From an uncultured virus (IMG/VR IMGVR_UViG_3300017991_000099) (taxonomy: Duplodnaviria; Heunggongvirae; Uroviricota; Caudoviricetes), in the IMG/VR virus record IMGVR_UViG_3300017991_000099: a stretch of DNA of 20,000 nt; one strand, 5' to 3'. The position numbers were made by a program, and so were the translations under genes. The notes beneath the pieces are model-generated. The model worked only from the letters and a program-made list of their open reading frames with translations, searched no databases and had not been told where the DNA came from. Shown piece after piece: positions 2,521-19,729 of this stretch (positions within the stretch are counted from its first letter, which is position 1; every line of letters starts with the position of its first letter).

Positions 2521-2943
2521 ATGAATATCGTTTTCCTAGACATTGACGGGGTACTAAACCAAAACGGAAGTATGGATTTCCCGCCTGCATTGGATACAGC
2601 AAAGGTGGGCAATCTGAATCTGATTCTTGAAAATACAAACGCCAATATCGTAATTTCAAGCACTTGGCGTTTCATGTTCTCGCAAGAAGAAATCGAAAAT
2701 GCTCTGACTACTGCTGGCTTCATGTTTCTTGACCGGATTATTGATAAGACTCCGGTTCTAAATGAAGGAACAAGGGGAAGTGAAATCGCTATGTGGATGC
2801 AAGATAAGGACATACAGAGCTTTGCGATTCTTGACGATGACGATGATTTCTTGCCAGATCAAATGCCTTTCCTGGTCAAGACAGACTTCGATACTGGTCT
2901 GACAAGAGAACATGTAGAAAAAGCAATCGAAATCTTGAGTTAG
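2521..2943 (+). CDS. HAD-superfamily protein (Swiss Army Knife RNA-repair-like HAD)
   Basis: FLDIDGVLN motif I, IVISSTWR, RGSEI..W, FAILDDDDD. Confidence 0.9.
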   Translation: MNIVFLDIDGVLNQNGSMDFPPALDTAKVGNLNLILENTNANIVISSTWRFMFSQEEIENALTTAGFMFLDRIIDKTPVLNEGTRGSEIAMWMQDKDIQSFAILDDDDDFLPDQMPFLVKTDFDTGLTREHVEKAIEILS

Positions 2944-3014: not shown

Positions 3015-3281
3015 ATGCCATATGTCACGAAAAAACACTTCACAGTTGACGGCAAAAGACCTACTACAGCAGATTGGAATGAGTTGTGCAAAGACGACAA
3101 TTTCAATTCTGCTGTTTCTTTCTTTGAGGAAGCACAGTACAGTAAAAAACTTGCCAAACAATACGCAACAGAAGAGGGAGAAAATATTTCCTCTATCTGT
3201 GCCTTTATTGATAGGCTTGGTATAGGCACACACCAAGAAGAGGCAAAAAATTACTCCGGTTATTCTGGACCTATTTCATAA
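3015..3281 (+). CDS. Hypothetical protein
   Basis: Motif 2982, ACAAGGGAGG RBS, ATG 3015. Confidence 0.8.
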   Translation: MPYVTKKHFTVDGKRPTTADWNELCKDDNFNSAVSFFEEAQYSKKLAKQYATEEGENISSICAFIDRLGIGTHQEEAKNYSGYSGPIS

Positions 3282-4048: not shown

Positions 4049-4657
4049 ATGCTCTTTGTTGGTGACGTACACGGTAAGTTTGACGCATTTGAGAGCCTAC
4101 TATATAAACACCTGGATAATAAACCAGTCTTCCAATTAGGAGATATGGGAATAGGCTTTACAAATTGGAATGATGGTCTATATTCCCGTATCGTCCCTAA
4201 CCATAGATTCATAAGAGGCAACCACGACGACCCGGAAAAGTGTGAAAAAGAATACAATTATTTAGGTGACTTTGGTTTCCTGAAAGAACATAATCTCTTT
4301 TATATAAGTGGGGCGCATTCAATAGATAAACATTTGAGAACAGAAGGTAGGGATTGGTGGCCTGGAGAAGTATTCAATTATACACAACAAGAGGAATGTG
4401 TAAAATTATATACAGAAGCAAAACCTAAAATTGTAATGTCGCATGAATGTCCTAACGATTGTGTTCAATATGTTGCAAAATACGGTTCGAGTAAAAATAA
4501 TAACGATAGCATGAAAATGATGTTGAATCATATGCTTTCGATACATGAACCAGAACATTGGATATTTGGGCATTATCATATTACATTGCATTTTGAATTG
4601 CCGGATTGCTCAACAAACTTTCATGCTGTAGACGAATTAGATACTTTTTCTCTCTAA
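4049..4657 (+). CDS. Calcineurin-like metallophosphoesterase
   Basis: GDVHG, LGDMG, RGNHD, SHECP, FGHYH motifs. Confidence 0.93.
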   Translation: MLFVGDVHGKFDAFESLLYKHLDNKPVFQLGDMGIGFTNWNDGLYSRIVPNHRFIRGNHDDPEKCEKEYNYLGDFGFLKEHNLFYISGAHSIDKHLRTEGRDWWPGEVFNYTQQEECVKLYTEAKPKIVMSHECPNDCVQYVAKYGSSKNNNDSMKMMLNHMLSIHEPEHWIFGHYHITLHFELPDCSTNFHAVDELDTFSL

Positions 4658-8849: not shown

Positions 8850-9017
8850 TTAGACCTTATCTTTACCCCTTTCCTCCTTCCAATCCAATGCCAATAACTT
8901 TTCTTTATTCTTATTATACTCTTCTTCGTTAGATAAGAAAAATTGACGATAATTCCAGTAACGATGACCATTTCTTACAGTGCTATACCACATTGTCAAT
9001 ACACGATTATCATCCAT
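8850..9017 (-). CDS. Hypothetical protein
   Basis: Minus-strand motif at 9044, AGGAGG/AGGA RBS, ATG 9017. Confidence 0.7.
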   Translation of the reverse strand: MDDNRVLTMWYSTVRNGHRYWNYRQFFLSNEEEYNKNKEKLLALDWKEERGKDKV

Positions 9018-9097
9018 TTTTCCTATCCTCCTGAATATATACAATTCCTACACTGAAAATTTCCTAAAACTAATAGAGAAATTCAAAAACCCAAACA

Positions 9098-9292
9098 TTA
9101 CCATACAATTCCATCAGAAGAACCCCTATTCCCCTCAATGAAATCCTTCTTTGCCTGCTTCCGGTTCTGTCCGTATACATGAATCTTATTCGGACAATAA
9201 GAAACATCGTGCCAAAAATGATGCGGAAAATCAGCACCCTCCACAACTTCATACTTCGCCTTCTGCTTGCAATGATAACAATGCAAACCCAT
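9098..9292 (-). CDS. Small Cys/His protein (CYHC...CPNKIH)
   Basis: Minus-strand motifs at 9316 and 9353, AAGGGG RBS; alternative start 9298. Confidence 0.7.
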   Translation of the reverse strand: MGLHCYHCKQKAKYEVVEGADFPHHFWHDVSYCPNKIHVYGQNRKQAKKDFIEGNRGSSDGIVW

Positions 9293-9371
9293 ATTCATAT
9301 CCCCTTATATATACAAACAACAAACCCCTTTTCCAACACCTATATATATACAATACCAACCCCAATAATTT

Positions 9372-9421
9372 CTAAACAAAACAAAAGGGAAGGGGGATAA
9401 TTATTTCTATCCCCCTTCCCT
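9372..9421 (-). terminator. Intrinsic terminator after the ArdC-like gene
   Basis: 14-bp stem AGGGAAGGGGGATA/TATCCCCCTTCCCT (9386-9421), then TTTGTTTTGTTT on the minus strand. Confidence 0.8.
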
Positions 9422-9434
9422 GAATAACCAACCC

Positions 9435-10256
9435 TTACGCTTCAACCCCAATCTCTTCAGCGGTCTTAAGAATGTGCTCAACAATCTTGCACACCCGGTT
9501 GACCACCTTGTAGCAAGCATCCGCCACAGACTTGCCTTCCCGTTCCGCCCAAGTCTTGACATACTCAAAACAACCGCCCAAATCCGCTTCAGTCTCGTAA
9601 CCGATGCACTTCAGAAGAACCGCACCAGCAAACTCGGCAGTCACTTCACCCAAAGCACGACTGTCTTTGCCAAGGTTGCCCAGCAGATCGTCGCTCTTGT
9701 GTGCCAACTCATGCGCCCAAGTTGACAGATTCTTAGTGCCAAGGCCAATCGCGTTCGGTCCAGGCATGTAAACACCCAAAGCACCATGCTCAGAACCATT
9801 GAAAGCCTCGACCGAAACCCCCCAATGCTTCGCAACTTCAATCAGGGGCAAACTCGACATAAACTCTTGCACATCTGAAGCATGTTCAATCGGCTTGCCT
9901 TCAGTCTGTTCCAAGCCGTAAACCCGCACAGCCTTGAAACCGATCAAAAACGACTTCTTTTCGCCCGTATCCTTGTCCTTGTAAGAACGCATGACAGGGG
10001 CAAGAATGTGAACCGGATTGCTCCATTCCTCGCTCTTCACCCAACGACCCAGCTTTTTCCACTGTTTGGCTCCACGGGCATCAGAATAACCATGCAACAG
10101 CACAATCAGCCGGTTCATAAAGCTGTAACCCGAAATGTGCTTATCCGCAGCCCCCTGAACAAACACCTGAGAAAGAGCCGCAGGAATATCGCCATTCTCA
10201 AAGGCCCGGATCACACTGTTTGCTGCATTCTGTGCCTGCCCAAAATACTTAGCCAT
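9435..10256 (-). CDS. ardC: ArdC-like protein: N-terminal ssDNA-binding domain plus zincin-like (HExxH) metallopeptidase domain
   Basis: YSFMNRL, RGAKQWKKLGRWVK, ILAP, GFKAVRVY..EQTEG (ArdC-N/DUF1738 pattern); WAHELAH and EVTAE; ACAAGGGAG RBS, motif at 10327. Confidence 0.8.
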   Translation of the reverse strand: MAKYFGQAQNAANSVIRAFENGDIPAALSQVFVQGAADKHISGYSFMNRLIVLLHGYSDARGAKQWKKLGRWVKSEEWSNPVHILAPVMRSYKDKDTGEKKSFLIGFKAVRVYGLEQTEGKPIEHASDVQEFMSSLPLIEVAKHWGVSVEAFNGSEHGALGVYMPGPNAIGLGTKNLSTWAHELAHKSDDLLGNLGKDSRALGEVTAEFAGAVLLKCIGYETEADLGGCFEYVKTWAEREGKSVADACYKVVNRVCKIVEHILKTAEEIGVEA

Positions 10257-10319
10257 TTTTGTATCTCCCTTGTCCCTTGTTCTCTGTGGCTTGAACCCCA
10301 TTGTTCTCGCCACAACCAG

Positions 10320-10401
10320 ATAAACAATTCTCAAGACGATTTTTTCGACACTATCTTTTTTTTATTTTGATACGAATTTTTCGAATCCAGAATTGTATAT
10401 C
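10320..10401. repeat. Back-to-back motif pair, copy 1 (others about 10475-10556, 11252-11333, 12365-12446)
   Basis: ATAAACAAWTCTCAAGACRATWTTTTCGA...GWTACGAA near-identical in three copies; minus TTG to plus TTG distance is 66 bp in all four. Confidence 0.85.
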
Positions 10402-10419: not shown

Positions 10420-10470
10420 ATAGACCTTGGCGTAACTCTGGACCAAGGGCGCGTATGTCCCTTCCCGCAA
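10420..10470 (-). ncRNA. Putative small non-coding RNA, copy 1 of 3
   Basis: Conserved ORF-less element starting 12 nt after the minus motif at 10482; AAGGG/CCCTT stem with 9-nt loop. Confidence 0.55.
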
Positions 10471-10587
10471 TAAAATAAACAAATCTCAAGACAATATTTT
10501 CGACACTATCTTTTATTTATTTAGATACGAAAAAATTGATCTGACTTTTGTATATACATTCAGGACAAGACAAGGGAGAAAAGAACA

Positions 10588-10752
10588 ATGGCTAAGAACA
10601 TGAAAAACAACAAAAACAAGAAGCAGAAAAGCAACACAATCACTATCCCCGTCGAACACAAGGCCCCAAGGGTTTTCTTCAAGAAACAGACCCACAAGGA
10701 CAAGAAAAAGCATGCAAAAAAGTATGCTTGTCGCGGAAAAAATTGGGATTAG
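10588..10752 (+). CDS. 54-aa highly basic protein (HKDKKK...KYACRGK), not in ORF track
   Basis: Motif 10548, ACAAGGGAG RBS; hand translation MAKNMKNNKNKKQKSNTITIPVEHKAPRVFFKKQTHKDKKKHAKKYACRGKNWD*. Confidence 0.8.
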   Translation: MAKNMKNNKNKKQKSNTITIPVEHKAPRVFFKKQTHKDKKKHAKKYACRGKNWD

Positions 10753-10836
10753 TTACGAAAAAATTGATCTACGTTTTGTATATATAATTGTTGGAAGGGA
10801 ATGAGCCCAACCAACAAAACAAGGGAGACACAAAAC

Positions 10837-11118
10837 ATGGCAATCACCCGCGAAAAGGTCTGCATCGACGGCAAGGTTTACGAGCGCGAAATTGACACAA
10901 ACGAAGCACAGGTCCACCGCTTCATGGTCAGCGATCAAATCATGGGTCGCCTTGGCCTCCGGTTAGACTCCTACGCAGCAAGAGTCGAACAGGGACGCAA
11001 AGGCCCAATGGCCTCCGCAATGGCCGCTCGCAACCACAAGAATGGCAAGAGCCGTAAGGCCGAATCCGCTGCACGGGCAAGAAGGGAACAGGCCAAAACC
11101 AACCGGGAAGGCAAGTAA
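10837..11118 (+). CDS. Hypothetical protein with a basic C-terminus
   Basis: Motif 10776, RBS, ATG 10837. Confidence 0.8.
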   Translation: MAITREKVCIDGKVYEREIDTNEAQVHRFMVSDQIMGRLGLRLDSYAARVEQGRKGPMASAMAARNHKNGKSRKAESAARARREQAKTNREGK

Positions 11119-11141
11119 ACCCGGCACACACAATAACTTAG

Positions 11142-11178
11142 AGGGACCGGGAACAACAAACCCGGTTCCTTTTCTTTT
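11142..11178 (+). terminator. Intrinsic terminator
   Basis: AGGGACCGGG/CCCGGTTCCT stem followed by TTTCTTTT. Confidence 0.8.
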
Positions 11179-11200
11179 GATTTATATACAAACCATATAG

Positions 11201-11247
11201 ATAGAATTCGGCGTACCTCTGGACTAGGGTTTGTTACCCTCCCGCAA
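11201..11247 (-). ncRNA. Putative small non-coding RNA, copy 2 of 3
   Basis: Starts 12 nt after the minus motif at 11259; same scaffold, different loop. Confidence 0.55.
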
Positions 11248-11384
11248 TAGAATAAACAAATCTCAAGACAATATTTTCGATATAATCTTTTATTTATTTA
11301 GTTACGAAAAAATCGAGCTACGTTTTGTATATATAAGTGTTGAGGAAATAAGTCTTCAACACAAAAAACAAGGGAGAAACAAGA

Positions 11385-11543
11385 ATGGCCAACGATCTGA
11401 CAAACATCCCCGCCGCCGCCTGTTGCAAGTGTGGAGGATGGACAAGTTATGGCGGTTGCAGCCAACACAGGGACGCAACAAAGCCGGTCCTAGGACGAAC
11501 CGGATGCACCTGCCTCAAAAAGAACAAGAAGAAAGAAAAATAG
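11385..11543 (+). CDS. 52-aa Cys-rich basic protein (not in ORF track)
   Basis: MANDLTNIPAAACCKCGGWTSYGGCSQHRDATKPVLGRTGCTCLKKNKKKEK*; motif 11325 and RBS. Confidence 0.75.
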   Translation: MANDLTNIPAAACCKCGGWTSYGGCSQHRDATKPVLGRTGCTCLKKNKKKEK

Positions 11544-11625
11544 ATCCGAAAAAATTGCTATGGGAATTGTCTATACAGTTGTGAGGCAAAGAGGCCCACA
11601 AAACAAACAAGGGAGAAACAAAACA

Positions 11626-11982
11626 ATGATTACCCTCTACACCGCAACTTACCAGATTGTCACCCAGGACGATGCAAGCCACTACACTTCCGGCTATGGC
11701 AAGGCAACACACCACGATATGAAAATCGCTGCAATCCGGGCATATCAGCTTGCAAATGAGGATTTTGACAAGCAGGTCCGCAATGACGATACTGGCCTTG
11801 CTGGTTCCGGTTGCTGCATCCTCCATGACGGCAATGTGGACCGCTACAACGATGGGGAAAAGGATCTCGCAACCTATTGGAGCTACGACTTTTACGGCCA
11901 CAACAATAACCACTTTGTTGAAATGCACCGTAGTCCTTCCCTGGTCGAAAACATCAAAAACCGGGAAAAAGTTACAAAATAA
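11626..11982 (+). CDS. Hypothetical protein
   Basis: Motif 11567, RBS, ATG 11626. Confidence 0.8.
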   Translation: MITLYTATYQIVTQDDASHYTSGYGKATHHDMKIAAIRAYQLANEDFDKQVRNDDTGLAGSGCCILHDGNVDRYNDGEKDLATYWSYDFYGHNNNHFVEMHRSPSLVENIKNREKVTK

Positions 11983-12052
11983 TCACGCTACAAATTGTAT
12001 ATACTGTTGTCAAAGGGAATGAGCCCAAAGACAAAACAAGGGAGAAACAAGA

Positions 12053-12220
12053 ATGGATATGACGACCGAAATCAAGACCCTCCTGAATGACACCGAAAAC
12101 GTATGTGATGGTGAGCTTGATCTGTACGGCGAAGAATGGGAATACTACAAGTCGCACAAGGATTCCCAGCCAGAGGATTATTCCTGGTACGAAGAATCTC
12201 TCCAGAATTGCCCCTTCTAG
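12053..12220 (+). CDS. 55-aa acidic/aromatic protein (not in ORF track)
   Basis: MDMTTEIKTLLNDTENVCDGELDLYGEEWEYYKSHKDSQPEDYSWYEESLQNCPF*; motif 11995 and RBS. Confidence 0.8.
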   Translation: MDMTTEIKTLLNDTENVCDGELDLYGEEWEYYKSHKDSQPEDYSWYEESLQNCPF

Positions 12221-12251
12221 GGCATATAAAGCCCTACAATCAATCTTAACG

Positions 12252-12290
12252 GCCCTGCCCCAGCAAGACAAGGGGCAGGGCATTCTTTTC
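12252..12290 (+). terminator. Intrinsic terminator
   Basis: GCCCTGCCCC/GGGGCAGGGC stem followed by ATTCTTTTC. Confidence 0.75.
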
Positions 12291-12313
12291 AATATAAGCC
12301 AAATATGGACGAA

Positions 12314-12360
12314 ATAGACCTTGCCGTACCTCTAGACCAGGGAATCAAACCCTCCTGCAA
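12314..12360 (-). ncRNA. Putative small non-coding RNA, copy 3 of 3
   Basis: Starts 12 nt after the minus motif at 12372; same scaffold, different loop. Confidence 0.55.
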
Positions 12361-12470
12361 GTATATAGACAAATCACGTATCAAATAATTCAATACCAAA
12401 TAAAATAAACTTTGCTACGAATTTTCCCTGTTCAGAATTGTCTATATATCAAAAGAAGGGAGAAAAAACA

Positions 12471-12894: not shown

Positions 12895-13287
12895 ATGCTT
12901 CAGAACATTCTCAACCTGCTGAATGTGGTCCTGAGCCTGCTTCCTGGTAACAAGCCCAAGGTCCGCTCCGCAATTTACAACATCATGGAGTCTCTCAAGC
13001 GGGAACAGATTCGCCTCTCTGATGACGAAAAAATGGAAATCTACCGGGAATACAATCTGAATGGAAAGGTCCGCAAGATCCCGCATATCAAAGCAGTAAA
13101 GGATCGTACTGGCCTTCCTTTGACCGATTGTAAGGAAATGGTAGAAGAATACATAGCGGCAGAACTTGAAGAAGAATCCCCGTATGGCACCTGTAAGCGT
13201 TGTGGAGCCGCTAACGACGAAATCGGACAGTGTGGATTTTGTCAGTATATGTCTTCTTCTCCTTGTGAATATCAACCCCGCACATAA
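12895..13287 (+). CDS. Protein with a divergent bL12-CTD-like segment and a C-terminal zinc ribbon
   Basis: KIPHIKAVKDRTGLPLTDCKEMVEEY, then CKRCG...CGFC. Confidence 0.7.
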   Translation: MLQNILNLLNVVLSLLPGNKPKVRSAIYNIMESLKREQIRLSDDEKMEIYREYNLNGKVRKIPHIKAVKDRTGLPLTDCKEMVEEYIAAELEEESPYGTCKRCGAANDEIGQCGFCQYMSSSPCEYQPRT

Positions 13288-14951: not shown

Positions 14952-17681
14952 ATGGAAAAGGAATTAAGGGATACTTCTGATTATTGCATAGAGTGTGGTA
15001 ATTTTCTTTCTAATAGGCATAGTAATCGTTGTTATGAATGTCGGCAAAAAAAAGAGAAAGAAAGGAAATTATTAAAGCAGTCGAACTTTTGTATCATTTG
15101 TGGGGCATCATTATCTGAATACAACATTAATTCAAAAAAGTGTAATCAGTGTAAGTCATATAAGAAGGTTAAAGATAAAAAGGTAAAGGTTAAAAAAAGA
15201 TCGTTTGAATATGATGGAATTTTATATAAGAGTATATCGGATTTTTATAGAAGAAAGAAAATATCAGATGTTTCTTGTGGTATATTTGTTGAATTATGCA
15301 ATAAGTGTGGATCTATTAATGGAGCCTTGAAGAAATTAGAAGAACGAAGGGAAAAGCATATAACAATAGAAAAATGCAATAAATTAGCAAATGATCGAGG
15401 AGGAAAATTTTTAAATATAGAAGTGAACGGTGCATATGATAAACTACAATGGCAGTGTCACAATGGCCATATATTTGAAAAGACATATTATGATGTATTT
15501 GTTCGTGGTTCCTGGTGTTCTCAATGTACATCTATATTTTATAAGGAAGAGTTGTGTCGAGCTATATTAGAGGCTTTGTTTGGCAGTCGATTTCCTAAGG
15601 GATTCTTTTTTGATTGGTTAGTAAATGATCATGGTAATCAAATGGAGTCTGACGGATATTGTAAGGAACATAATATAGCATTTGAATATCATGGGATACA
15701 ACATTTTAAGTCTGTAGGAAGATTTAAAAACAATCTTGAACAACGACAAAGGGACGATAAAAGAAGGGAAGAACTATATAAAGAACATGGAATTAAATAT
15801 ATAGAAATAACACACAGAGTAGCAAAACGAAATACTTTAAAGATAGATGAGAGGGTTAGAAGGATAAGGAAATATATTTTATTTGAGTGTAGCAGATTGG
15901 GGATTGAAGTACCCTATCCTGATGCTGAGATAGATGTTTCTAAAATATATACAGCAGATAAATGGAGGTATAAAGAAATAAAGGAAGATGTTGAAAGAAA
16001 CGGAATGCAATTAGAAAGTAAATTTTATATAGGCACAGATTCTAAATATGATTTAATTTGTAGCAATGGGCATAGATTTAGTTTATCTTATTCCCATTTA
16101 AAGAGGGAGAAGTTAGTTTGTCCTATATGTTTTGAAGAAGAGAGAATAAAGAAGGGGAATGAAAGGGTAAAGAGGGCGATTTTAGAGCATGGTGGTGAGA
16201 TAATTGAAGGTGAGTATAGGAGTGGTAAGAGCAAATTAATGATAAGGTGTAAGGAAGGTCATGAATGGGAGACAAGTTGTTACAGTATAATAAAAGGATC
16301 GTGGTGTTCTGAGTGTTATAATCCTGGTATTAAGGTTGATTATGCGGGTGAACATTTTGAAAATTTAGTTGAGTTTTGTTCTCATTTTTTTATTCGACAG
16401 GAAACGTTGCATAGATTAATGGAAATAGAAGGGTGGAATATAGAGAGGGCGGCTGATTATTTAATATATGGAATAGGGAAGAGGAAGGATAAAGAGTATA
16501 AATGTGAATTATGCGGGAAATTATTTTATATTAAGGCGGGTGCAAGCGGTAATAGAAAATATTGTATTGATTGTATAGAGAGGTCTAAAAAATTAAGATA
16601 CAAGAAATATGCCAAACAACAGAAGGAAGAGAGGCACAAAAGAAAGAAAGAAAAGGGATGGTTTTGTATAGAATGTGGTAAGGAAATAATTGGCATTGAT
16701 ATTCATGGTAGAAGGAAAACGTGTGATGATTGTAAAAACAGGGAAAGAAATGGATGCAAAAAATGGACAGAGGATGAAGATAAGATATTATTAGATAATG
16801 CTGACACTTTATCTACAGTAGAATTAGGAGAGTTATTACCAGGAAGGAGTATTGAAGCGATAGGAGTTCGAAGATTAAAATTGGGGATAAGATTGCGTGA
16901 GGAATCTATAGAATGGAGCAAAGATGAATTAGAGGTTATTAGAGAGCATGGATCTGAGATGTTTTGCGGTGAGCTTCAGGGGTTATTACCTAAGAGGAGT
17001 GTTGGAGCAATAGGGTTTAAGCGTAAGCAGATGGGCATTTATTTATCTGAGAGAAAGAAGAAGGAACAGCGTCGAGAATTGATTTTAAATTCTCAGGCTG
17101 TTACGAGAAAGTTAGATCATTCACTTACTTTAGAAGATTTAGATTACATAACTAAGCAGGTTTTATTAGGCAGTGTATTTGGAGGTGGATCTATATATGC
17201 TAAGGGTAGTAGTCATATATTATCGGTTGGTAGAGATAATGAGGCATATTTAGATTGGAAGATGTCTAGGTTATCTATATTTGAACCTAGAAGGAAGGGT
17301 AAGTTGAAGTTTGAGACACCTAAGCATTCTATATTTAGTTATTTATATTCCAGGGTATATTCTTGTGTTTCTAATAGGATGAAGCAGGTATTATTTCCGG
17401 TAGATTTATTGGATCAGTTGGGAGATTTGGGTTGGTTGGTGTGGTATTTGGATCAGGGATGTTATAATGCTGGGAATATGAATTTAAGTGTAGGCAGGGC
17501 GTTGGATTTTGGGAATATTTTGGATGAATTTGAGAGGTTTTATTCTGTTAGGTTAAAGAGGTCTAAAGGTCGTCAGAAGTTATTGTTAGGATCTGTTAGG
17601 GATATTATATTGCCTAGATTTTGTTCTATATTTAGGGAGTGTATGTTTCCTGGGAGTATTGGGTATAAGTTAGGTTTGTAG
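14952..17681 (+). CDS. Multi-domain homing-endonuclease-like protein: zinc ribbons, Vsr/PD-(D/E)XK-like nuclease, tandem Myb/SANT-like HTH repeats, degenerate LAGLIDADG domain
   Basis: CxxGH...WCxxC ribbons; EELCRAILE...ESDGY...AFEYHGIQH...RDDKR; KWTEDED...RSIEAI and EWSKDE...RSVGAI; VLLGSVFGGGSI and LVWYLDQG; AGGAG RBS. Confidence 0.8.
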   Translation: MEKELRDTSDYCIECGNFLSNRHSNRCYECRQKKEKERKLLKQSNFCIICGASLSEYNINSKKCNQCKSYKKVKDKKVKVKKRSFEYDGILYKSISDFYRRKKISDVSCGIFVELCNKCGSINGALKKLEERREKHITIEKCNKLANDRGGKFLNIEVNGAYDKLQWQCHNGHIFEKTYYDVFVRGSWCSQCTSIFYKEELCRAILEALFGSRFPKGFFFDWLVNDHGNQMESDGYCKEHNIAFEYHGIQHFKSVGRFKNNLEQRQRDDKRREELYKEHGIKYIEITHRVAKRNTLKIDERVRRIRKYILFECSRLGIEVPYPDAEIDVSKIYTADKWRYKEIKEDVERNGMQLESKFYIGTDSKYDLICSNGHRFSLSYSHLKREKLVCPICFEEERIKKGNERVKRAILEHGGEIIEGEYRSGKSKLMIRCKEGHEWETSCYSIIKGSWCSECYNPGIKVDYAGEHFENLVEFCSHFFIRQETLHRLMEIEGWNIERAADYLIYGIGKRKDKEYKCELCGKLFYIKAGASGNRKYCIDCIERSKKLRYKKYAKQQKEERHKRKKEKGWFCIECGKEIIGIDIHGRRKTCDDCKNRERNGCKKWTEDEDKILLDNADTLSTVELGELLPGRSIEAIGVRRLKLGIRLREESIEWSKDELEVIREHGSEMFCGELQGLLPKRSVGAIGFKRKQMGIYLSERKKKEQRRELILNSQAVTRKLDHSLTLEDLDYITKQVLLGSVFGGGSIYAKGSSHILSVGRDNEAYLDWKMSRLSIFEPRRKGKLKFETPKHSIFSYLYSRVYSCVSNRMKQVLFPVDLLDQLGDLGWLVWYLDQGCYNAGNMNLSVGRALDFGNILDEFERFYSVRLKRSKGRQKLLLGSVRDIILPRFCSIFRECMFPGSIGYKLGL

Positions 17682-17836: not shown

Positions 17837-19729
17837 ATGCACAATTTAAGAGTAGCCCGTATATCTTTGGTTGCGGATCGGCTTTATGTTGCTGGTGTGG
17901 CTGATCAATTACTGAGAAAATATCAAGGCAAGTATTCTGATTTGACGATTCAAGATATAAAGAAGCTAAGAGATACAGTTAAGGGTGTTATATCAAAGGG
18001 TATTTCGTATGATGGAGCCAAAATAGATATAGGCAAGAATGAGGATAAGATAGTAAAAGCTACTACGGATTTGATTTTATCTTCAAAGGGTAATTTAAAA
18101 GAAATTACATCTGACACGGGTATTATTTATGAGATTATAGATTGTGTGTCTATGCTTTCTGTTTTGTTATATTTACGGCGAAGATATCCTCGTTATTGGG
18201 ATAATGAGATGATCAAGTGGTTTAACAAGGATATCAGCAGTTTTAAGACGTTGAATAATTTGAAGAGGCATTTTGAGATACATAAGGATTTATTAGTAAA
18301 GGATGGTGATGGTCGTATTGCATTAAGGCCTGAGAAGAAGGGTCAGAGTAAAAAGCATAAGAGTGTTGATAGTTTGCCTACAGAAGCGAAGGTAGCGGGG
18401 TATATAATTAAGAGGATTGATAGTGAGGATCAGATACCGTCGCAGGATTGGACTGATTTGGAGTGTAAGAGAAAATATTGTATAACTACGAAGAATTATT
18501 TTGGTGAGTATGGTGGGCCTCCTTATTTTTGGGTATTAAAGAAGGATGGTGAGAAGTATGTACAGTATGGGATGATCATACCTAAAGGGCTGGAAGACGA
18601 TCCTGAACAAGCTTTAAGGAACGCAAATAACACGGGTATGATGGAACCTGAACTTATGGAAAAATTACGTCCATTTCTTGAGAAGATTGGAGTAAAGTCT
18701 ATAGGTGAGCATGGAATTATTTTAAAAGATCGATTTATAAAGAAATATAATGAAGAATTTTTCGAAACTGAAGAAGAAGAGGAGGAGGATAGGAAAGCAA
18801 AAGAGGAGGCTCTTTGGGGTTACAAGGGGTTAACGGAAAGAGATAAGTTAGCAATTTTAAGAACTCATGGGAATATGATTAAGCGTATAGAAAATCCAAG
18901 TGAGGAAATGCAATTAGCGGCTGTTAAGGAAGATATTTATGCGATAAGATATATTTTAGAAAAGGGTATTAAACCAAGCAAAGAAGTACAATTAGCGGCT
19001 GTTAAGAGATGGGGAGGTGCAATAGAATATATTTTAAAAAGTGGTATTAAGCTAAGTGAAGAGGTTCAATTAGCAGCGGTTAAGGAAAATGGAAATATAA
19101 TAAAACATATTTTAGAAAGCGGGATTAAGCCAAGTGAAGAGGTTCAATTAGCAGCGGTTAGGGAAAGTGGTGAGGCAATAAGATATATAGATAATCCAAT
19201 TGAGGAAGTACAATTAGCGGCGGTTAGGGAAAGAGGTAGTGCAATAAAATATATAGAGAATCCAAGTGAGGAAATGCAAATGGTGGCGATCAAGGAATCT
19301 GAGATGAATATAGAAAATATTAAGAATCCTACTGAGAAGGTTCAATTAATTACAGTGGTAAAAAATGCCAGCACTATTGCAGATATAAAGGATCCCAGTG
19401 AGGCGGTATTATTTGCGGCTGTTAAGAAGTATGGTCGAGTAATTAAGTATATTTTGGAGAATGGCATTAAGCCTAGCGAAAGAATATTATTACAGGCGGT
19501 TCGTGAAGATGGCAGGGATGGTCATGCGATTGAGGAGCCTGCGATCAAGTTTATATTAGATGCGGGAATTAAGCCTAGTGAAGAGATATTATTGGAGGCG
19601 GTTAAGGAAAATAAGGATGCGGTTAAATTTATATTAGAGGCTGGGATTAAGATACCGAAAAGTGTAAAGAAGCAGCACAAGTCTAAATGGAATACTGAGC
19701 CTTGGAAAGAGGGAGAGTTAGTCCATTAA
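17837..19729 (+). CDS. Large phage protein with C-terminal DUF4116-type helical repeats
   Basis: About 11 repeats of PSEEVQLAAVKExGxAIxYI; GGAG RBS. Confidence 0.85.
   Translation: MHNLRVARISLVADRLYVAGVADQLLRKYQGKYSDLTIQDIKKLRDTVKGVISKGISYDGAKIDIGKNEDKIVKATTDLILSSKGNLKEITSDTGIIYEIIDCVSMLSVLLYLRRRYPRYWDNEMIKWFNKDISSFKTLNNLKRHFEIHKDLLVKDGDGRIALRPEKKGQSKKHKSVDSLPTEAKVAGYIIKRIDSEDQIPSQDWTDLECKRKYCITTKNYFGEYGGPPYFWVLKKDGEKYVQYGMIIPKGLEDDPEQALRNANNTGMMEPELMEKLRPFLEKIGVKSIGEHGIILKDRFIKKYNEEFFETEEEEEEDRKAKEEALWGYKGLTERDKLAILRTHGNMIKRIENPSEEMQLAAVKEDIYAIRYILEKGIKPSKEVQLAAVKRWGGAIEYILKSGIKLSEEVQLAAVKENGNIIKHILESGIKPSEEVQLAAVRESGEAIRYIDNPIEEVQLAAVRERGSAIKYIENPSEEMQMVAIKESEMNIENIKNPTEKVQLITVVKNASTIADIKDPSEAVLFAAVKKYGRVIKYILENGIKPSERILLQAVREDGRDGHAIEEPAIKFILDAGIKPSEEILLEAVKENKDAVKFILEAGIKIPKSVKKQHKSKWNTEPWKEGELVH
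18880..19660 (+). repeat. Intragenic tandem repeats (22- and 26-codon units)
   Basis: Recurrent CCAAGTGARGA...CAATTAGCRGCKGTTARG at DNA level. Confidence 0.85.

Follow-up and report, generated by a model that had tools for sequence, protein, structure and literature searches.

The DNA analyzed here is a stretch of 20,000 nucleotides, referred to below as the window, from an uncultured virus of the Caudoviricetes (IMG/VR record IMGVR_UViG_3300017991_000099). It represents the early region of a large uncultured phage, the ArdC-like protein of which is listed for a contig of 144,235 bases, and it contains three copies of a short element that lacks an open reading frame (ORF) and that, judged from its sequence, is probably a genuine minus-strand RNA element under selection. 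The plus strand of the window carries some 30 small genes, each with one promoter copy, a strong ribosome-binding site, and often a hairpin in the 5' leader; the common promoter of this strand consists of an upstream CGAAA-rich box and the core TTGTATATA. Three minus-strand genes, one of which is ArdC-like, form a leftward block (8850-10256), upstream of which the element copies are located. A megablast search with 6 kb of the window against 50,697 phage records gave no DNA match, cultured phages included, and the contigs of two other runs were identical to the window and thus provided no sequence variation.

The element had been noticed in a preliminary description made from the letters alone, according to which three copies share a constant scaffold and a variable loop, and each begins 12 nt after the TTG of a minus-strand motif. 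All three copies were found on the minus strand (Table 1), and the 12-nt offset to the TTG (positions 10482, 11259, and 12372) is exact in each of them. This offset had been said to be shared with the leader hairpins of plus-strand mRNAs, and the register is indeed the same, namely, a 9-nt core, 4 nt, and the hairpin. Copy 1 does have an additional A-U pair, the plus-strand terminators directly ahead of copies 2 and 3 fold stably and carry U-runs, and no conserved ORF follows the copies, the loops of which (9, 7, and 7 nt in the window and 6 to 14 nt elsewhere) keep no reading frame. The notion of a constant scaffold holds in part: the loops do differ, but the two flanks are not independent of each other, since UCC of the 3' flank forms pairs with GGG at the 5' end, which leaves the tail of about 20 nt as the only invariant single-stranded part.

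A position-weight matrix built from 27 plus-strand promoter sites was scanned over the window and gave only six strong matches on the minus strand (scores of 21.9 to 34.2; next best, 12.3). Three of these sites precede minus-strand genes (9353, 10327, and 9044), and the other three are those in front of the element copies, each of which begins 4 to 5 nt after a promoter-like core. The promoters of the ArdC-like gene, copy 1, and copy 2 are near-duplicates of each other. Each of the four leftward promoters in question is paired with a plus-strand promoter, the cores being exactly 66 nt apart, which results in four divergent modules (Table 1). The plus-strand promoter that is paired with that of ArdC is directed towards copy 1; its predicted start and that of the leftward promoter at 10474-10512 are about 60 nt apart, and it would yield an exact antisense RNA of this copy. 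Read on the minus strand, the terminator hairpins that precede copies 2 and 3 have no U-run.

Table 1. Features of the window that are relevant to the element (positions refer to the 20,000-nt stretch)
Feature	Position	Strand	Remarks
Copy 1	10420..10468	-	72.8 bits; in training set of covariance model
Copy 1, 5' end			GC
Copy 1, lower stem	10464-10466 with 10440-10442
Copy 1, bulge	10443-10444		2 nt
Copy 1, upper stem	10459-10463 with 10445-10449
Copy 1, loop	10450-10458		9 nt
Copy 1, conserved tail	10420-10439
Copy 2	11201..11245	-	7-nt loop; tail identical to family consensus; minimum free energy fold gives bulged hairpin
Copy 3	12314..12358	-	7-nt loop; compensatory change G-C to A-U in lower stem; one C-to-G change in tail
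Leftward promoter-like site, copy 1	10474..10512	-	Core 10474-10482; score 26.1; upstream part at 99.98th percentile
Leftward promoter-like site, copy 2	11251..11289	-	Score 26.7
Leftward promoter-like site, copy 3	12364..12402	-	Score 24.8; good core, more divergent upstream part (10.5)
Divergent promoter modules	10319-10401, 10474-10556, 11251-11333, 12364-12446		Three are near-identical 97-nt repeats (family D14)
ArdC-like gene (273 aa)	9435..10256	-	Pfam ArdcN; PHROG anti-restriction; conserved neighbour of the element
Predicted ArdC promoter, same subclass as copy promoters	10319..10357	-	Score 27.4; followed by leader hairpin, ribosome-binding site, and ATG at 10256
Intrinsic terminator of ArdC-like gene	9386-9421		Strong
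Plus-strand promoter without ORF behind it	10363..10401	+	Converges on copy 1; partner of ArdC promoter in divergent module
Plus-strand intrinsic terminator before copy 2	11140..11178	+	-19.3 kcal/mol, U-run
Plus-strand intrinsic terminator before copy 3	12252..12290	+	-23.9 kcal/mol, U-run

To describe the family, a covariance model that was given only four base pairs was trained on copy 1 and on homologues from four other contigs (L002, L013, L015, and L081, described below). This model retrieved from the window both copies that were absent from its training set, namely, copy 2 with 53.5 bits (E 4.8e-12) and copy 3 with 37.9 bits (E 5.1e-8); among the 19 window matches listed, the one that comes next has an E value of 0.39. 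Over 82 sources (389,788 bases), there were nine matches at E ≤ 1, which correspond to the five training sequences, copies 2 and 3, a truncated copy in L002, and a sequence from a Chloroflexota genome (L082). We consider the last one, a match of 22 nt, to be due to chance: about one such match is expected by our arithmetic, and its context is chromosomal, with transporter and hydrolase genes, the match itself lying between a transporter gene and a PRC-barrel gene. In accordance, 3 of 401 Chloroflexota genomes have a match with at most one mismatch, as compared to 3 for a reversed control.

The predicted fold consists of a lower stem of 3 bp, a 2-nt bulge on the 3' side, an upper stem of 4 to 5 bp, a free loop, and the invariant tail. 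Pairing is complete (100%) in the four pairs of the upper stem, and changes on both sides are seen in two of these; RNAalifold added three lower pairs outside the model, in which GGG pairs with UCC across the 2-nt bulge. For the seven pairs together, 100% of the cells are paired and three pairs have double-sided changes: a lower-stem G-C is replaced by A-U in copy 3, an A-U is replaced by G-C in copies 2 and 3, and L081 carries G-C and U-A. In addition, an A-U takes the place of a G·U in the lower stem of L013. These counts include L082, without which one G-C cell is lost and three covarying pairs remain. The covariation score was reached in none of 500 shuffles, and sliding the partners by 1 to 3 columns reduced pairing to 32 to 58%. 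A G·U pair is found in 7 of the 8 rows and would be a C·A mismatch on the opposite strand, which assigns the element to the minus strand of the window. The loops measure 6, 7, 7, 9, 9, and 14 nt, and the hairpin arm of L081 is wholly different while its tail is unchanged. The tail, AGAGGUACGCC-RARK-UCU, may itself fold into a short UACG-capped stem that is interrupted by a bulge of 4 nt. A different pairing, which places a helix around a loop of 12 nt, was discarded, since it forms in copy 1 and L015 only.

Homologues were obtained from ArdC-anchored loci and from exact-pattern scans of IMG/VR. The ArdC-like protein has 220 relatives in metagenomes; scanning metagenome contigs with the ArdC alignment provided 80 loci, in which we then searched for the constant 15-mer of the element with up to 3 mismatches. 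This 15-mer picked out L001, which is the same phage, and L002, L013, and L015, the ArdC-like proteins of which are 68% (L002) and about 51% (L013 and L015) identical to that of the window. In each of these loci, the match shares the strand of the ArdC promoter and immediately precedes it, and L002 contains in addition the 3' part of a second copy at the place that matches copy 2 of the window. The exact-pattern scans of IMG/VR (0, 1, and 1 matches) always led to the same 253-kb jumbo phage contig (L081, equivalent to G001), in which no ArdC was found and which has a single copy upstream of a CobT-like gene. The family as recovered here comprises seven full copies and one truncated copy in five contigs, including the window, and in four of these five contigs a copy is directly upstream of the ArdC-like promoter. 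Other searches were negative: ArdC as a single-protein query in IMG/VR gave no confirmed match; the ArdC alignment gave 11 IMG/VR loci, none of which has the element (best E value in the loci, 1.7, and one spurious 29-nt match in a whole record); and when the element was compared by blastn with collections of cultured phages and of plasmids, short chance matches were all that resulted.

The promoter in front of the element differs among these phages. In L002, each of the two copies has its own promoter. The element of L013 and L015 is enclosed by two tandem copies of one promoter, the ArdC promoter and its duplicate, whereas in L081 it is found behind a sigma-70-like promoter, TTGCCA-N18-GATAGT. 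The pattern TTGCCA-N17-19-GATAGT occurs only twice in the 253 kb of this contig, namely, before the element and before the next gene. Under all three promoter types, the element starts 4 to 7 nt after the -10 region, which is the predicted transcription start, so that the putative RNA appears to keep its start irrespective of the type of promoter. No co-oriented gene follows copies 2 and 3 or the second copy of L002. An ArdC relative in a further locus (L005, about 3030-3245) has two tandem, near-identical promoters separated by a short ORF-less spacer, which is the same architecture with the element absent.

The element is more conserved than its surroundings. By our count, about 7 of 53 element positions differ between the window and L002 (about 46 of 53 identical), whereas the intergenic DNA downstream is about 40% identical and contains indels. 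The tail is nearly invariant across phages with ArdC-like proteins that are only about 51% identical, and in the 253-kb phage without ArdC; it is unchanged between about 42% G+C (our estimate for the window) and 49% G+C (the 253-kb contig). The preliminary description had named decayed leaders of lost ORFs as a case that would speak against an RNA family, and a tail that is nearly invariant while its flanks have diverged does not correspond to that case.

Two observations were made on the neighbourhood of the copies. Two small, highly basic proteins, possibly nucleic acid binders, are encoded between them at 10588-10752 (+) and 10837-11118 (+), and the 93-aa member of this pair is kept beside the second copy in L002 with 64% identity. 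Furthermore, many early mRNAs of the window are predicted to start with a hairpin of the type GG(G/C)-AAUGAG-like loop-(C/G)CC directly after the plus-strand cores at 1549, 2131, 5868, 10776, 11567, 11995, and 12846; comparable leader hairpins are located ahead of ArdC in L002 and L007, and the phage group may thus have another conserved RNA motif at the 5' end of its transcripts.

We then compared the element with known RNAs and possible targets. None of the 4227 models of Rfam release 15 matched the element at E ≤ 1 in the window, L081, L082, L002, or L013, and the window contains no tRNA gene as judged by ARAGORN and no Rfam tRNA match. Among 185,579 prokaryote species, each represented by one genome, the 22-nt constant part has one exact match, a chance level that indicates that it is not an exact copy of a cellular RNA or host repeat; a less exact mimic of a host repeat is conceivable. 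No antisense target of the constant 15-mer exceeded shuffled controls in the window, and no target of the 18-nt tail was found in the window or the 253-kb contig. Outside the element, complements of the 7-nt loops number 1 to 4 per strand, about as many as expected by chance, and they do not lie at ribosome-binding sites; the complement of the full 9-nt loop of copy 1 is present only inside the element, and 7-mers taken from it are dispersed and confined to the plus strand. Text searches of the literature surfaced no description of the element among the papers listed, a 13-mer matching one unrelated paper only. Presumed likenesses to a 16S rRNA helix, the sarcin-ricin loop, signal recognition particle RNA, glycine tRNA, boxA, and ops were not relied on.

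A number of points emerge from these data. (i) The preliminary description had proposed a family of early minus-strand RNAs of about 50 nt, acting as a guide, a decoy or antitoxin mimic, or a replication primer, or else a repeated DNA site. The family is supported by the promoter placement, the covarying hairpin, the strand-specific G·U pair, the homologues, and the lack of a known Rfam family, whereas the loop as guide or specificity determinant is not supported, since loop complements occur at chance frequency. The repeat, promoter match, hairpin covariation, strand, and conservation across phages, as well as the lack of an ORF, an Rfam family, and an antisense target, were computed directly, and they agree with a selected RNA element. 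(ii) The copies have promoters of their own, there are several per genome, some are gene-less, the copy of L081 is followed by a terminator, the loop is free, and no antisense target was found, all of which suggest an RNA that acts in trans. Because the loop is unconstrained and lacks a complementary target in the two phage sequences searched, the constrained parts are best read as a recognition surface for a protein. (iii) The promoter subclass shared with ArdC suggests coexpression with the anti-restriction gene, which would place the element, with low confidence, in counter-defence. The whole statement, namely, a small early RNA that acts in trans through recognition by a protein and is made together with ArdC, is tentative, and we assign it a probability of roughly 0.4.

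According to this proposal, each copy would be a tiny early transcription unit of the minus strand with a leftward promoter of the ArdC subclass, and the RNA would start at the G of GCGGGA. It would fold into a 5' hairpin with the GGG/UCC lower stem, the 2-nt bulge on the 3' side, the upper stem of 4 to 5 bp, and the variable loop, followed by the tail, which might fold as a small UACG-capped hairpin. The lower stem, bulge, and tail would form the surface recognized by a protein, and the RNA would operate in trans as a small protein-binding RNA, either a decoy or an adaptor, several copies of which would be made alongside the anti-restriction protein ArdC within the program of the first minutes of infection. 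Promoter firing, the 3' end of the RNA, binding of a protein, and a role in counter-defence are presumed in this scheme. Its most specific version, a multicopy immediate-early RNA counter-defence gene, in which the hairpin and 20-nt tail would capture or divert a conserved protein of the host, such as a nuclease or an RNA-surveillance or defence factor like Ro60, appears unlikely at present; if it were true, it would represent a protein-sponge RNA family of phages that has not been described before.

Several results weigh against a trans-acting, protein-binding RNA. The family is small, and no candidate partner protein is common to the window and the 253-kb contig. Transcription itself is something that we infer from sequence, a look-up of RNA sequencing runs having listed none with this DNA. 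Single-sequence folds are no more stable than shuffled sequences (z of +0.5 to +1.6 for six of seven sequences and -0.6 for one), which indicates a weakly structured RNA, and the alignment used for the pair counts had been fitted to the upper stem. The pairs of the UACG hairpin proposed for the tail never vary, and copies 1 and 3 cannot form the pair that would close it. Finally, there is no consistent terminator after the element: a U-run of at least 4 lies close behind the tail in about four of the eight copies (copy 1, the first copy of L002, L013, and L081, the last one with a strong hairpin and U7), and none was seen in copy 2, L015, or the second copy of L002. Transcripts may thus run on into the next promoter and gene, which favors a role in cis.

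This last point leads to the strongest alternative, a cis-acting leader of the nut, put, or TAR kind, in which the bulged hairpin and the linear box would bind the polymerase or a factor and alter leftward elongation into ArdC and beyond. The element has a suitable layout, with a hairpin that varies and, after it, a linear sequence that does not, right at the 5' end of the predicted transcript, and five of the eight copies start predicted transcripts co-oriented with a gene (ArdC in the window, L002, L013, and L015 and the CobT-like gene in L081). All three window copies point towards ArdC, no consistent terminator separates the element from the gene downstream, and the strong terminator after ArdC is a possible object of read-through. 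However, every lineage has a second promoter between the element and the gene, which makes the upstream start dispensable for that gene. Transcription from copies 2 and 3 and from the second copy of L002 would enter converging genes and produce 0.8 to 1 kb of antisense RNA before reaching a co-oriented ORF, and the element of L081 is closed by a hairpin with U7. On balance, we regard a cis-acting leader as rather unlikely, although it deserves to be kept in mind.

That the element acts as DNA, be it as a replication origin or primer site, a protein-binding site, a single-stranded DNA structure, or part of a mobile promoter cassette that spreads along with a duplicate of the adjacent promoter, is improbable. 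The weak folds and the location of the copies would fit such a role: they are embedded in a divergent promoter module that is repeated four times with the 66-nt spacing of cores, they always lie between two near-identical promoters, and an RNA would start G-rich with A+T-rich DNA following. Yet the compensatory changes and the conserved G·U pair point to a single-stranded molecule of one strand, and the start of the element coincides with the predicted transcription start under three promoter types. The unchanged tail of L081 next to a wholly different arm speaks for long-term selection rather than recent spread.

Still less probable is a minimal Y-RNA-like partner of the TROVE protein Ro60, in which the tail and bulge would carry the contact motif and the RNA would tether or block Ro60 and an exonuclease. 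In PMC4201824, Ro60 is described as contacting GGUCCGA in animal Y RNAs, and bacterial Y RNAs as carrying GNCGAAN0-1G near the 5' end; PMC12135203 describes a Thermus phage Ro60 that binds small hairpin RNAs via a CGAA motif in a bulge. The tail of the element begins with GGUCCAGA, which resembles the contact motif with one extra base and is present in six of the seven full copies, copy 3 reading GGUCUAGA. Four of the seven full copies contain GNCGAA, although not the G at its end, and CGAA, which in these copies falls into the proposed 4-nt bulge, and a TROVE gene that had been predicted for the 253-kb contig was then found there. This gene is, however, 25 kb away from the element and has a tRNA-like gene of its own 190 nt upstream. 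TROVE proteins are common on large uncultured contigs, which makes their co-occurrence weak evidence; the element is present in none of 13 other TROVE-encoding viral records, and there is no TROVE gene in the window or the other loci examined. Moreover, CGAA is missing from copies 1 and 3 and from L015; GGUCC is here the 3' strand of the 5' hairpin and not the 5' strand of a terminal stem; the Y RNA models of Rfam were not matched; and neither a tRNA-like domain nor a long end-to-end stem is present. The tRNA-like gene in question (L112, positions 398-489; about 68.2 kb in the 253-kb contig) is a 92-nt tRNA-Met-like gene with a long extra arm and may be that phage's own Y-like RNA instead of a functional tRNA.

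A regulator that acts by base pairing, either with c4-like loop specificity or as an antisense RNA against converging genes, is very improbable. Loops that differ completely between copies would be expected of the former; as to the latter, transcripts of copies 2 and 3 would be complementary to plus-strand genes at the 3' ends of these, and a plus-strand promoter converges on copy 1. Nevertheless, loop complements occur at the chance rate, the searches of the window and the 253-kb contig with the constant part (15-mer or 18-nt tail) brought no target to light, and the converging promoter at 10363-10401 is not kept in L002. Least probable of all is a neutral by-product, that is, leader hairpins left by duplicated promoter modules that lost their ORFs: the hairpin does resemble several mRNA leader hairpins and has the same offset from the promoter core, but the tail and lower stem are kept, with compensatory changes, in four other contigs with other promoters and G+C contents, while the neighbouring intergenic DNA has diverged, and no homologue has an ORF either.

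Several other genes of the window gave matches of their own. Two small plus-strand genes match the C-terminal domain of ribosomal protein L7/L12 (5339-5665, E 4e-9; 12895-13287, E 9.5e-5, the latter below the Pfam cut-off). The gene at 2521-2943 (+) encodes the HAD domain of "Swiss Army Knife" RNA-repair proteins (E 6e-29), and that at 4049-4657 (+) encodes a calcineurin-like phosphoesterase. A 909-aa protein (14952-17681, +) has no Pfam match but PHROG matches to an HNH endonuclease and a D5-like regulator, and a 630-aa protein (17837-19729, +) is composed of 26-aa (78-nt) repeats of the DUF4116 type, which account for the direct-repeat families D3, D7, and D8.

The element is a candidate small RNA family without an earlier Rfam entry, adjoining an anti-restriction gene in related phages. 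To our knowledge, few phage-encoded small RNAs have a known role, and RNA counter-defence is limited to a handful of cases, which include repeat mimics, a PARIS-neutralising tRNA, and phage Y-like RNAs. If the RNA binds a host factor, a new family would be added to this short list, and the first minutes of infection by a group of large uncultured phages from sediment would become easier to study; with an action in cis, it would represent a new leader that modifies the polymerase. Either way, the element is a defined object that can be synthesized and tested without culturing the phage.

Five known systems invite comparison. According to PMC4201824 and PMC12135203, YrlA and Yrl1/Yrl2 of Thermus phage phiLo are, as predicted for the element, small stem-bulge-stem phage RNAs with a short contact motif. 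Part of the element copies have a CGAA or GGUCC-type motif, and one of the carrier phages encodes a Ro60 homologue; unlike Y RNAs, the element is not located beside the Ro60 gene, has no tRNA-like domain or Rfam match, and lacks the motif in three of seven full copies. The nut sites of lambda and put sites of HK022 are leader RNAs that render RNA polymerase resistant to terminators. Compared by description and not by sequence, they share with the element the presence of several early copies behind promoters and the combination of a hairpin with a conserved linear part, but here a second promoter precedes the gene, three of the eight copies are gene-less, and the loop is free whereas the bulge and tail are fixed. 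The c4 RNAs of P1 and P7 are antisense RNAs with a constant scaffold, the specificity of which is set by the loops; scaffold and differing loops are alike in the element, the loops of which have no complementary targets, and no Rfam model was matched. RNA anti-CRISPRs, solitary repeat units, and pseudo-antitoxin repeats are phage RNAs that mimic a host repeat. The element, although it copies no host repeat exactly, resembles them as a short, ORF-less, predicted hairpin RNA with fixed flanks that is found among counter-defence genes and may be a protein decoy. Lastly, the promoter-early stem-loop cassettes of T4-type phages are repeated units of promoter and stem-loop between small early ORFs, that is, regulatory DNA within one genome. 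The window likewise has dozens of small ORFs with a promoter and a stem-loop, and the element rides on a repeated divergent module; what sets it apart from these cassettes is a predicted transcribed sequence of 45 to 50 nt that is conserved between distant phages, independently of the promoter.

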